Shown in pieces: positions 5,206 through 11,382 of a stretch of DNA of 64,000 bases (position 1 is the first letter of the stretch; the number at the start of each line of letters is the position of its first letter). The notes below the pieces were generated by a model that saw only the letters and a program-made list of their open reading frames with translations, made no database searches and had not been told where the DNA came from. The DNA lies in NCBI RefSeq assembly GCF_003790525.1, contig NZ_CP033635.1, one strand, 5' to 3'. The stretch comes from Escherichia coli (lineage in GTDB: Bacteria > Pseudomonadota > Gammaproteobacteria > Enterobacterales > Enterobacteriaceae). The position numbers and the translations under genes are program-made.

Positions 5206-6645
5206 TCAAATATTTTCGCCATTGTTGGCGATGAGATCCCGATACCAGTAAAACGACGCTTTACGTATCCTTTCCAGCGTTCCCTTCCCTTCGTTGTCTT
5301 TATCGACATAAATCATTCCGTAGCGTTTTTTCATTTCCCCTGTTCCGGCAGAAACCAGGTCAATGCAGCCCCACGGTGTGTAGCCAATTAAGTCAACACC
5401 ATCTTCAACAACGGCTTTTTTCATTTCCCGAATATGGGAAGCAAAGTACTCAATGCGATAGTGATCGTTCACCGTGCCGTCAGCTTGTCTCTGGTCAACC
5501 GCACCCAATCCATTTTCGACAATAAACAGCGGCAACTGGAAATGATCCCAGAACCAGTTGAGTGAATAACGTAGCCCTGCCGGATCAATTTGCCATCCCC
5601 ATTCGGATGTATCGATATAAGGGTTGCTGACCAAATCTCGTGGTTCAACATAATTCAGTTGCGGGTTATCTGGCGAAAATTGCGTAGTAAAAGACATGTA
5701 GTAGCTAAAACCGATAAAGTCGACACAACCTCTGGCAAGAATCGTGTTATCTTCTGGTGTGATATCGAGGTTGAATCCTTTCCTGGCAAAGTAATTCAGC
5801 ATATGTTGCGGATAATATCCACGCGCATGAACATCAGTAAACCAGTAACGACGATGCATCGCTTTCGTGGCCATCATCATATCGTTGGGTGCACACGTCA
5901 GAGGATAGATGGGGCACATGGCGATCATACAGCCGATATTAAATTCAGGATTGATCGATTTTCCAGTCTGTACCGCCAGGGCACTGGCAACTAACTCGTA
6001 ATGTACCGCCTGGTACATTATTTGTTCGCGCTCATTGATATCTTCCTCTGGCGAATACAAGATACCGGAATTAGTAAATGGACACAGGCTTTCGCTGAAA
6101 TTCACCTGATTATTGATTTCGTTAAACGTCATCCAGTACTTTACTTTTTCTTTATAGCGCGTGAAGACCGTTGATGCGAAGCGGATGAAAAAGTCGATCA
6201 GTTTACGGTGTCGCCAGCCACCATATTTTGTCACCAGATGATAAGGCATCTCAAAATGCGAAAGCGTCACCACAGGCTCCATTCCCTGCTTCAGGCATTC
6301 ATCGAACAGATCATCATAAAATTGTAAACCCTCTTCATTCGGCTCCTGTTCGTCACCTTGCGGAAAGATTCGTGTCCAGGCAATGGAAGTTCGAAAGCAT
6401 TTGAATCCCATCTCGGCAAATAACTGAATATCTGTTTTATAGCGATGATAAAAATCAATTGCTTCATGATTGGGATAATTAAGCCCGTCGATAATGCCTT
6501 CTGTCACTTCACGCGGCACCCCGTGAGCGCCAGCAGTCATCACATCAGCGATACTGATGCCTTTTCCTCCTTCATTCCAGCCACCTTCCAACTGATGCGC
6601 GGCTACCGCGCCACCCCATAAAAAACCTTTTTTAAATCCTGACAT
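5206..6645 (-). CDS. GH1 6-phospho-beta-glucosidase (BglA/AscB-like)
   Basis: GH1 motifs (FLWGGA..AHQLEG, TFNEIN, IVENG) in a 479-481 aa protein. Confidence 0.85.
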
Positions 6646-6669
6646 ACACAACTCCTTAACTAAAATAGA

Positions 6670-8343
6670 TTACCACCAGACTTCCGCCTGGATGCCGGCC
6701 ATAAATTCGTCTTTGCTGTTCTCATTAAACTTAAAATTAGATAATTCGTTATCCAGAATATTGATATACGTGCCATAGAAGCGAATTTCTGGTCGTGAAC
6801 CTAAAATGCTTTCACCCACTTTCAATGCATGCCAGAGTGTCGTTTTATAAGCCGATTCATTTAGTGTTACACCCTGCTGTGCTTTGTTCTGTTGCTTAAA
6901 CCAGCCTAATTCAAGCCCCGTCTGATTCCATGTATTCCAGATCCAGGCCGGTCTTATTACGGTGCGAATACTGTCAAAATCACTATGAGCGCCACTTTCA
7001 TAACTATAAACATCTTCGCCATGAGAATAGACAAGCGCGTTAGCCATAATAATATTGTCAGTAAGATACATCTCGCCCTGAGAGATTAAACGCCAGGCGA
7101 TCCCATTGGTATGGTCACCATAGTAATAGCGACCATGCGCCATCGTGTTACTGGCATCTGAGAAACTGGCAAAACTGCTGGCATAGGAATTATTGGCAAC
7201 CTGTAACGTAAATTCATTAAACGTATCGCGTTGCAGTTTTTGCCGTAAAACAGAAGTCAGCATCCAGCTATCTTTCATTTCAAAATAACTGTCGTCATTT
7301 TCATTATCTTGTTGTTGATCCGTTTTATTAGGTGCGGAATATTTAGCCATTAATGATAATGTTGCATCATCCCATAACGGGATATTGCGATAACGAACAT
7401 CCACAGAATTAGTATTCATCTGACTGGTACGCGTAAAATCACGGGAGTAAACATCGACATCATCTCGGCTTAAGGACATATCAAACAGCCCTACACCAAG
7501 TGCCCAGTTTTCAATCCCCACACCCGCAGCGACATCCGTGGTTAAGGTTTTCCAGTCCAGCATTTGGATCTCATATTGCGGGAGTTTATGTTTGCCTACC
7601 CAGAAGTCTGCCTCTGGCGCGAAGGGTAAAAAACCTCGCGTTGTCAGATAAATATCACTGAACTGCATGATATTTTCATTGGCACTGTCACCAAACCAGG
7701 CATCGTTATACTGCTCACCTACGTTGCCATCATAGGTAACGACCGCATTTGCCGTTTTACCGTCCTGATTATAAACACGCTGATTTAAGGTTAAGTCAAA
7801 CCAACCGCTCATCTCGTTACCAAAACGTCCCAGAGAACCCGCTGCATAAGTTTGTGGTGAGCCATGATTTCCGGTACCCCAACCTGAGCGAAAGTACCCC
7901 TGATAGCTGAACCCAATATCATCTTTTATATATTTACTGATATCTTTCAGGGTCACGCTTTCGATAGTGGTTTTATCGCCTTTACTTTCAATAACGGCAA
8001 TTTGCTGCGATCCATTTATAGTATGTGCTGCGGCAGACGAGTTCTGTTCACCGTTTTCATTTTTGATGTTATCAGCAACGGGAGATGGAGCTGATATTTC
8101 GGCAAGCGAGGCCGATTGATATTTATTTTCTGTGATGCTTTTTTGTAATGTCGAAAGTCGGAATTTATATACTCCTAGTTCATTCTGTGTTGCTCTCAGC
8201 TCTTGTTTATTTTGCGACAATTCATTTTCAAGCAGTTCAAGGCGCTGCTCTATGGTTAATTTTGTTGCCATCGCGTTCAATGGAAACAATGCTGTAATAA
8301 TAGAAAAAGACAAAAGGCTGACGTTAAGCGTCTTTATATTCAT
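6670..8343 (-). CDS. LamB-family carbohydrate-specific porin with N-terminal coiled-coil extension (ScrY/BglH-like)
   Basis: signal peptide, coiled-coil heptads ([28 protein letters not shown]), beta-barrel-like C-terminus ending ...AEVWW. Confidence 0.7.
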
Positions 8344-8398
8344 GACTTATCCTTAAGAGTGTAATAATTTCCTCCAGCTATCGCACTGGAGGAAAAAA

Positions 8399-8716
8399 TC
8401 AGGCATGGAGCTCTTTTCTTAATGAAATGATTTCCCTGGCTAAATCCTGGCATAATATTGCATTCATCAAATGATCCTGTGCATGTACCAGAATGAGATT
8501 AACTTTTATTTTGCCACAGCCTTCATCCTGACTAATTAACGCGGTCTGAATCTTATGCGCCTGAAGACAGGCGGATTCAGAACTGGCCATTAGCTGAGTT
8601 GCGCCCTGCCAGTCTTTTTGCCCGGCACAACGTATGGCTTCCATCGCATCAGAACGGGCCTGTCCTGCGTTGACCAGTAACTCCATAACAAGTTCTTCAT
8701 CTGCAAACATCAACAT
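8399..8716 (-). CDS. PTS lactose/cellobiose-family EIIA component
   Basis: 105 aa; ...LILVHAQDHLMNA... resembles ChbA-type IIA. Confidence 0.8.
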   Translation of the reverse strand: MLMFADEELVMELLVNAGQARSDAMEAIRCAGQKDWQGATQLMASSESACLQAHKIQTALISQDEGCGKIKVNLILVHAQDHLMNAILCQDLAREIISLRKELHA

Positions 8717-10060: not shown

Positions 10061-10173
10061 TTTTTATACCTGTTGTTTTGGATATTTATACATCCCAATA
10101 AAGCATGTATGCCATATCCATTTTATGATGTGTGAAAAGTTAGTTCAGGTAATAGTTTAATAAAATTAGATTC

Positions 10174-10485
10174 TTACTGTTGCAGTAGTTTCATCGCAAA
10201 TTCAAGAACTGCCTGTCCGTTCATGGTGCCATAGTCTTTCATCTCGATAACAGCTACAGGCATTTTCCCCTGTGCAACAGCTTCAATCTCTGGTTTCTGA
10301 AAGCGAACTTGCGGGCCAAGTAAAACAACGTCAACTTCGTTATTTTTAATTTTCCCTTTAGCCTCTGCAATCGCCAATGCGGAAATATTAACTTCAAGTG
10401 AAATAGCGTTAGCATGATCAATCATACGTTTAACCAGCATACTGGTTGACATGCCCGCAGCGCAAACTAACAATATCTTTTTCAT
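10174..10485 (-). CDS. PTS lactose/cellobiose-family EIIB component
   Basis: 103 aa, MKKILLVCAAGMSTSMLV active-site Cys motif. Confidence 0.85.
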   Translation of the reverse strand: MKKILLVCAAGMSTSMLVKRMIDHANAISLEVNISALAIAEAKGKIKNNEVDVVLLGPQVRFQKPEIEAVAQGKMPVAVIEMKDYGTMNGQAVLEFAMKLLQQ

Positions 10486-10683
10486 ATTTTCCCTTACTGG
10501 TATATAACAGATTACATTGTGTAAATATCATATCCCGCAGTAGCTATACGTCCTGGTACATTGATCACAGTAATACAGCACTAAAGTTGTTCAACATCAG
10601 GGTGATAATTAAACGACTCGGCCATAGGATAAACCAATCAGGACTCAACTCCTTGTTTTCAATGGCTCTTAAAAGGTGCAAAA

Positions 10684-11382
10684 GTGATTTTTCAAAAGAT
10701 TGCCCGCTTACTTAAATCCGAGATCAATGGCTATTCATGGCATGTTGGTGATTTGTTGCCGTCAGAAGCTGAACTCGCTGTTCGTTATAATGTTTCGCGT
10801 AATACCCTGCGTAAGGCATTATCCTTGCTGGAAGGCGAAGGAATTATTCATAGAAAGCATGGTTCAGGAACATACATTCAAAAAAAGAATTTTGTTGCAC
10901 ACATTGATCACATGAACAGTTTCAGTGAAATTGCGCATAAAAGCGGCAAAGAGGCAGGGAGTCAGATTATGAAATTTGAAGTGCAGGATGCTTCTCCCCC
11001 TATTGCGACTGAGCTGAATTTAGTGACTGGTGAGCAGGTTTATTACATAAAGAGACTGCGATTCATTGAGGATAATGCAGCACAATTAGAAGAAACGTGG
11101 ATGTCAGTGGCACGTTTTCCTGATTTAACCGTAGCACATATGCAAAAATCCAAATTTTCGTATATTGAGAACGAATGCGGGATCAAAATCATTGGCACCT
11201 TTGAAACTTTCTCCCCGACTTTTCCTACCCCAGAAATCGCCAGTATTTTACGGATCAGCCCACGGGATCCCATACTTAAAATTCAGACCCAGGCTGTGGA
11301 CAGTAACTCTATTCCGCTGGATTATTCGTTACTTTACAGCAATATTTTCGAGTTCCAGGTAAAGTACTTTTTCCCGCGATAA
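10684..11382 (+). CDS. GntR-family (HutC/UTRA-type) transcriptional regulator, probable GTG start
   Basis: N-terminal GntR wHTH (SEAELAVRYNVSRNTLRKAL) and UTRA-like C-terminus; divergent from the PTS genes. Confidence 0.75.
   Translation: MIFQKIARLLKSEINGYSWHVGDLLPSEAELAVRYNVSRNTLRKALSLLEGEGIIHRKHGSGTYIQKKNFVAHIDHMNSFSEIAHKSGKEAGSQIMKFEVQDASPPIATELNLVTGEQVYYIKRLRFIEDNAAQLEETWMSVARFPDLTVAHMQKSKFSYIENECGIKIIGTFETFSPTFPTPEIASILRISPRDPILKIQTQAVDSNSIPLDYSLLYSNIFEFQVKYFFPR

Follow-up and report, generated by a model that had tools for sequence, protein, structure and literature searches.

The bgc operon of Escherichia coli is known from a study by Neelakanta, Sankar and Schnetz (Appl Environ Microbiol 2009, 75:2284). 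Reportedly, it depends on CRP, a single promoter mutation activates it, it is common among B2 strains, and E. albertii has it as well, homologues being found in Klebsiella, Enterobacter and Citrobacter. It has been listed as the fourth of four cryptic beta-glucoside operons of E. coli, among which chb and asc are both cryptic for cellobiose (PMC4488073), and activated bgc mutants have been reported to use cellobiose, arbutin and salicin (PMC3585215, PMC4488073). Expression of bgc was reported to depend on CRP and on the regulator BgcR, which resembles BguR and GmuR, and the proteins of bgc and bgu were found to be highly similar (PMC3585215). Here we analysed a stretch of 64,000 nucleotides of E. 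coli DNA (contig NZ_CP033635.1, referred to as the window), in which six genes at positions 5206-11382 lie between marB and eamA. We conclude with high confidence that this cluster is the known bgc operon, bgcE-F-I-H-A with the divergent bgcR, and that this accessory locus for beta-glucosides is part of the chromosome and non-mobile. The locus is already a published, named and experimentally characterised operon; what the present analysis adds is a current census, the exact junctions, evidence that the empty site of K-12 is ancestral, and a conserved arrangement of CRP-like site, -10 hexamer and dyad.

The 6.8 kb of the window that we used as a query were 100% identical to E. coli SMS-3-5 (NC_010498.1), and the six genes, all of them intact, agreed with the RefSeq annotation of that strain. 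Five of them are on the minus strand. The first gene of the operon, bgcE (10174-10485), encodes enzyme IIB (103 aa) of a phosphotransferase system (PTS). It is followed by bgcF (8738-10060; enzyme IIC permease of the lactose/cellobiose family, 440 aa), bgcI (8399-8710; enzyme IIA of the same family, 103 aa), bgcH (6670-8343; outer-membrane sugar porin, 557 aa) and bgcA (5206-6645; GH1 6-phospho-beta-glucosidase, 479 aa). On the plus strand, bgcR (10684-11382) starts with GTG and encodes a GntR/HutC-type regulator of 232 aa with a helix-turn-helix and a UTRA domain; a divergent control region (10486-10683) separates it from bgcE. A first-pass annotation of the window had listed these six genes, and its open reading frames were correct overall, except for two starts, which RefSeq places at 6645 rather than 6651 for the GH1 gene and at 8710 rather than 8716 for the IIA gene. 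The flanking core genes were marB on the left (4931-5149, plus strand; NF007508 equivalog, 141 bits for a cut-off of 87) and eamA (ydeD) on the right (11427-12326, minus strand; NF008523 equivalog, 629 bits for a cut-off of 472, in agreement with the RefSeq annotation).

The gene set, its order and its orientation match the description of bgc in PMC3585215, i.e. IIB, IIC, IIA, porin and phospho-beta-glucosidase, with a divergent gene for a GntR regulator. In the B2 uropathogenic strain CFT073, these six genes are likewise found between marB and eamA, at 1,796,169-1,802,345. This fits c1955-c1960, a six-gene set of CFT073 labelled 'PTS system, cellobiose specific', which SMS-3-5 was scored as having and K-12 and O157:H7 as lacking (PMC2831201, Table 2). 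A literature search with the bgc gene names, or with marB/eamA together with bgc, returned only PMC3585215, PMC4488073 and PMC2831201 as relevant papers, marB and eamA being mentioned merely as resistance genes in PMC11237723. Several points weigh against the identification. It rests on gene content, gene order, the location in CFT073 and secondary descriptions rather than on a sequence alignment, and the protein database entries that we retrieved bear generic names, none of them being called Bgc. In addition, the title and abstract of the 2009 report are said to stress prevalence in B2 and in extraintestinal pathogenic E. coli, whereas we found the cluster to be common also in B1-type Shiga toxin-producing serotypes (O111:H8, O113:H21 and O178:H19).

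Families were assigned by comparing NCBIfam profile scores with the curated cut-offs. BgcA matched NF007154 over its full length (1030 bits, cut-off 624). Its closest relative in the PDB was the putative phospho-beta-glucosidase 3PN8/4F66 (E = 6e-239), E. coli BglA (2XHY) giving 1e-201, and both catalytic glutamates of GH1 enzymes were found, in the motifs NEI175 and ENG377. The permease BgcF scored 336 bits with TIGR00410, above the cut-off of 236. The two small PTS subunits remained under the equivalog cut-offs, BgcI matching the ChbA-type NCBIfam model (E = 6e-31) and TIGR00823 (4e-29), and BgcE matching TIGR00853 (E = 1e-24). Their active residues, as in the PTS Lac family generally, are a phosphorylatable histidine in IIA, His76 of BgcI, which lies in a conserved H-A-Q-D motif (VHAQDHLM), and a phosphorylatable cysteine in IIB, Cys8 of BgcE, which lies in the phosphorylation motif LLVCAAGMSTS.

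In BgcH, a signal peptide and an N-terminal extension of the coiled-coil type precede a barrel like that of LamB (residues 146-557). The protein matched the NCBIfam LamB subfamily (E = 4e-60) over the barrel residues only, failed the maltoporin LamB equivalog (204 bits, cut-off 394) and gave no match in a phmmer search of the PDB, while its E. albertii orthologue contains the Pfam domains Sugarporin_N and LamB. BgcH is thus predicted to be a sugar porin of the LamB superfamily with a Sugarporin_N-type extension, and not maltoporin itself. BgcR matched NF007292 (E = 1e-40) as well as HutC-type GntR models, and its relatives in the PDB were YvoA/NagR (3e-21) and DasR (3e-15). A BgcR orthologue showed the Pfam domains GntR and UTRA, which places the protein in the HutC subfamily of the GntR family. 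These assignments supported the earlier proposal of a PTS of the beta-glucoside/cellobiose type with a LamB-family porin and a GntR regulator.

We propose that beta-glucosides such as cellobiose, arbutin and salicin would pass the outer membrane through BgcH, and that the PTS of the Lac/cellobiose family would take them up and phosphorylate them at O-6. The phosphoryl group would travel from phosphoenolpyruvate through enzyme I and HPr to His76 of BgcI (IIA), then to Cys8 of BgcE (IIB) and finally to the sugar passing BgcF (IIC), and BgcA would split the resulting 6-phospho-beta-glucoside into glucose-6-phosphate and glucose or the aglycone. Transcription would be started by a weak promoter, apparently CRP-dependent and of the class-II type, that would also require BgcR, and in wild-type strains bgc would be cryptic or poorly expressed, as published. 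In this scheme, the substrates, the low-temperature phenotype and the dependence on CRP and BgcR are taken from the literature; the gene content, the families, the active-site motifs, the distribution, the junctions and the conserved promoter motifs are those determined here.

The promoter motifs were found by aligning the bgcR-bgcE intergenic region from nine genera. On the minus strand, a CRP-like site, TGTGATCAATGTACCA, is present at 10569..10554, with its TGTGA invariant in the nine genera. It is followed by a -10 hexamer, TATGAT, at 10532..10527, in which the T, A and T at positions 1, 2 and 6 are invariant. The hexamer lies about 41 bp downstream of the centre of the CRP-like site, which is the geometry of a class-II promoter. 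Further upstream, at 10614..10589 on the same strand, we noted a dyad, GTTTA-N16-TGAAC, whose halves (GTTxA and TxAAC) are mostly invariant and which is a candidate site for BgcR. The ribosome-binding site and the GTG start of bgcR were also invariant in the nine genera. Together, the conserved CRP-like site, -10 hexamer and dyad fit the reported dependence on CRP and BgcR, the roles of the individual motifs being putative. A generic scan for promoters and terminators gave counts that were not above those of shuffled sequence.

The cluster is markedly AT-rich. Its GC content is 42.8%, whereas the left flank has 49.2%, the right one 47.0% and the window as a whole 48.4%, and no other stretch of 6.3 kb anywhere in the 64 kb is equally poor in GC. 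The GC content at third codon positions was 0.39-0.47 in the cluster genes and 0.55-0.58 in marR, marA, eamA and ydeE. The AT-richness of the PTS genes relative to their neighbours, suggested on first inspection, was therefore borne out by both measures, and the same is true of the two hairpins that had been noticed at the cluster ends, which proved real when their fold energies were compared with those of shuffled sequences. The left one (5154-5181), TGTCAGGCTCTG-atca-CAGAGCCTGACA, is found directly past the marB stop codon and has a stem of 12 bp (-22 kcal/mol, z = -5.2). The right one (11389-11421), between the stop codons of bgcR and eamA, has a fold energy of -23.3 kcal/mol (z = -4.4). 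In both cases, none of 200 shuffles folded as well. E. albertii has equivalents of both hairpins at the same places.

The left hairpin is likely to be a transcription stop for marB and bgcA, and the right one a bidirectional terminator for bgcR and eamA. It counts against this part of the scheme that neither hairpin was called by a generic terminator scan and that canonical U-tracts are absent, and because of this the terminator function is put forward as a likely role. A scan of positions 3800-12800 with Rfam revealed no RNA family. Comparison of the window (5154-5181) with L002 (3257-3278) and with five other loci with an empty site (L038, L040 and L046-L048) showed that the left hairpin is homologous to the single hairpin of the empty alleles, from which it differs by two compensatory changes in the stem. 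Every filled allele, from E. coli or E. albertii, has the stem GCTCTG/CAGAGC, and every empty one, whether from K-12, of the divergent type described below, from the two other Escherichia lineages or from other genera, has GCCCCG/CGGGGC. The compensatory pairs support a conserved structural role of this hairpin.

To describe the distribution of the cluster, we used 5,426 complete E. coli genomes. Of these, 2,493 (46%) contained at least 80% of the cluster interior and 2,563 any part of it, about 70 genomes having remnants damaged by deletions or insertion sequences (IS). The junction was intact and empty, as in K-12, in 2,484 genomes. Carriers were 97.2-98.9% identical to SMS-3-5 and had a single copy at one chromosomal site. 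In a K-12 derivative, the gap between marB and eamA is only 30 bp long and holds one hairpin. The view that this is a strain-variable accessory locus missing from K-12 is thus upheld by the census and by this empty junction. The last codons and the stop of eamA, which are outside the indel, read VGS* in K-12, while SMS-3-5 has VRG*, as does the divergent empty allele described below.

Decay of the cluster is ongoing. In strain 2017.17.01CC, a deletion has joined a truncated eamA to the ~80 bp at the end of bgcA (L036, 2440-2640); E. coli strain A1 has a deletion extending from the porin gene to bgcR (L037, 3961-5386); and in a third E. coli strain (H63) an IS3 element is inserted within bgcR. 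In two E. albertii genomes (L042 and L043), all that remains is bgcA, with or without a fragment of the porin gene, and bgcR.

About 390 records (~7% of E. coli) had a different empty allele, with which the query matched only over marB, at 90-95% identity. In this third allele, the empty junction lies within a tract of ~750 bp, which extends from the 3' part of marB to the 3' 500 bp of eamA and is 83-91% identical to both K-12 and SMS-3-5, compared with 97-100% for the DNA on either side. In the example that we examined, E. coli PapRG-04-4 (L003, 9030-9800), the tract corresponds to window positions 4931-5149 and 11427-11930. It looks like an imported recombination tract. No donor was found among the sampled lineages (L038, L040 and E. 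albertii). L045, which had been considered as a donor, was rejected, since this E. coli has that very allele, in an assembly full of frameshifts.

Outside E. coli, E. albertii contains the full cluster with both junctions. The nucleotide identity of the cluster genes between the two species was 79-84%, and that of the flanks 83-90%. Because the E. albertii cluster is as diverged as its flanks, the insertion would be about as old as the split between the two species, or would have been exchanged early. Orthologous clusters were found in E. albertii, Citrobacter, Salmonella enterica subsp. diarizonae, Kluyvera, Raoultella, Klebsiella, Enterobacter and Cedecea. The site is empty in the Escherichia lineages L038 and L040 and in the Lelliottia/Enterobacter-like L046-L048, where marB is 30-33 bp from eamA. 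The first-pass annotation had called the cluster 'inserted', which is right on a deep timescale, since marB abuts eamA in other genera and in other Escherichia lineages. The cluster is an old, non-mobile insertion shared with E. albertii and not a recent island. We propose that a single ancient insertion, in an early Escherichia lineage, would have placed the block between the marB terminator hairpin and the eamA stop codon, and that the block would since have persisted in E. coli as a presence/absence polymorphism of ~50:50, K-12 having the ancestral, never-filled allele.

Other explanations have to be weighed against this one. A recently acquired genomic island, spreading among E. coli by means of an integrase, a transposon or a plasmid, would account for the low GC content, overall and at third codon positions, for the patchy presence in 46% of the genomes, for the fact that the nearest PDB enzymes of BgcA are Gram-positive (3PN8) and for the other loci that the cluster occupies in Citrobacter and S. 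enterica subsp. diarizonae. We consider this highly improbable and largely refuted. No integrase, IS element or tRNA is annotated at the cluster ends, and a repeat search revealed neither a target-site duplication nor direct or inverted terminal repeats. All chromosomal copies in E. coli occupy one site (the median number of places per genome is one); the differences among carriers, 1-3%, are of the size seen in core genes; and the cluster of E. albertii has the same junctions and is as diverged as its flanks. PLSDB gave five matches, of which four were full-length E. coli copies and the fifth a weak, partial match in Enterococcus. Two of the full-length copies belong to records (NZ_CP134663.1 and NZ_OL790696.1) that, at 4.8-4.9 Mb, are evidently mislabelled chromosomes, and the other two come from a single isolate, in records of 42 and 386 kb that are non-mobilizable. 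The PLSDB search thus provided no genuine plasmid copy of the cluster. If the block is old, the empty site could still be the derived state, the cluster being ancestral to E. coli and K-12-type strains having lost it by a precise deletion. The filled state of E. albertii, with the same junctions and species-level divergence, speaks for such a loss, E. albertii being generally taken as the deepest branch of Escherichia, as do the independent deletions seen today in 2017.17.01CC, in A1 and within the cluster of E. albertii. Yet a deletion starting from a filled allele would retain the filled-type stem, and all the empty alleles have the other one; furthermore, the deletions observed today are ragged, with remnants left behind, whereas the K-12 junction is clean. 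We therefore regard a precise loss as improbable. Because all empty alleles have GCCCCG/CGGGGC and all filled ones GCTCTG/CAGAGC at the homologous position, the stem sequences argue that K-12 has an ancestral allele that was never filled, and not the scar of a deletion. What tells against this polarity is that it cannot be proven over an ancient deletion, since the filled E. albertii is the deepest Escherichia branch. We had also considered that the K-12 junction resulted from a deletion at a microhomology ('CGTA'); this model was dropped in favour of the hairpin-to-hairpin homology once the outgroup junctions had been compared.

A further alternative concerns the substrate. The physiological substrate might be another beta-linked disaccharide (gentiobiose, laminaribiose, mannobiose from glucomannan, or chito-oligosaccharides), in which case the published phenotypes would represent side activities. 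This would agree with the PTS subunits being under the chb, cel and lac equivalog cut-offs, with the similarity of BgcR to GmuR of the B. subtilis glucomannan operon (PMC3585215) and with the cryptic state of the operon on the sugars tested. Substrate specificity is indeed not readable from the sequences, because IIA, IIB and the porin score under the chb, lac and maltoporin equivalog cut-offs, and this weakens the assignment to beta-glucosides. Activated mutants have, however, been reported to use cellobiose, arbutin and salicin; BgcA is, with its 1030 bits, a GH1 6-phospho-beta-glucosidase and not a GH4 enzyme of the ChbF type; and the cluster is devoid of a deacetylase for chito-sugars. We think it rather unlikely that the physiological substrate is another disaccharide.

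More tentatively, the marB-eamA junction may represent an old, possibly trans-species polymorphism with three alleles, i.e. the filled bgc allele, the empty allele of the ancestral type and the third, empty allele in the divergent tract. If this doubtful but possible reading were true, the long persistence of the block at ~50:50 would mean that an operon regarded as 'cryptic' is under balancing or niche-dependent selection. The locus is in any case useful as a marker of the accessory genome beside mar, and it may bear on the use by E. coli of plant-derived beta-glucosides outside the host or at low temperature.

Some observations were made on the surroundings of the cluster. The marB gene changes faster than its operon partners: the protein of SMS-3-5 is 94% identical to that of K-12, compared with 100% for marA, and the nucleotide identity between E. 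coli and E. albertii is 83% for marB and 88-90% for marA and marR. Further AT-rich stretches (GC 0.39-0.41) were found near the locus. One, at window positions 750-2000, overlaps an open reading frame of 309 aa (890-1819) directly upstream of ydeA, at the place where yneK is annotated in E. coli PapRG-04-4; the other, at 14750-16000, is in the area of ydeI/dgcZ. In E. albertii NBRC 107761 (L004, 7280-7823), marC is apparently missing between marR and ydeA, as indicated by a gap in the alignment and by the lack of a tblastn match; it is present in the other E. albertii contigs (L042-L044). Finally, a rhodanese gene and a gene for a DJ-1/AraC-type regulator are present as extra genes between ydeE and mgtS in the diverged Escherichia lineage L038 (10568-12032) and in E. 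coli L045 (6567-8055), and are absent from SMS-3-5, K-12 and CFT073.

Compared with the other beta-glucoside systems, the composition of this cluster is distinctive, and none of bgl, asc and chb of E. coli shares it. The bgl operon (bglG-F-B-H) resembles it in being a cryptic, AT-rich and CRP-dependent PTS for aryl-beta-glucosides that includes a GH1 phospho-beta-glucosidase and a LamB-family porin (BglH), and in being also strain-variable (PMC2646131). It differs by its fused EIIBCA of the glucose family (BglF) and its RNA-binding antiterminator (BglG), where the present cluster has three separate subunits of the Lac/cellobiose family and a DNA-binding GntR/HutC regulator, at a different locus. 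The chb operon (chbBCARFG) also has separate IIB, IIC and IIA of the Lac/cellobiose family, and it provided the best NCBIfam matches for IIA and IIB of the cluster; it has, however, an AraC-type regulator, the GH4 enzyme ChbF and a deacetylase, no porin, and it is found in K-12. The asc operon (ascGFB), which is also found in K-12, has a LacI-type repressor and a fused EIIBC. Outside the enterobacteria, bgu of Streptococcus pneumoniae and gmu of Bacillus subtilis combine, like this cluster, a GntR/HutC regulator with a Lac-family PTS and a GH1 phospho-beta-glucosidase, but they are Gram-positive systems without a porin, and their regulators are repressors, whereas BgcR was reported to be an activator. 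No difference from the bgc operon itself was detected, the two agreeing fully in the six types of gene, in gene order and in the divergent GntR regulator, with the nuance of the spread found here (46% of complete genomes, many of them B1-type Shiga toxin-producing strains), which is wider than the reported emphasis of the 2009 study suggests.

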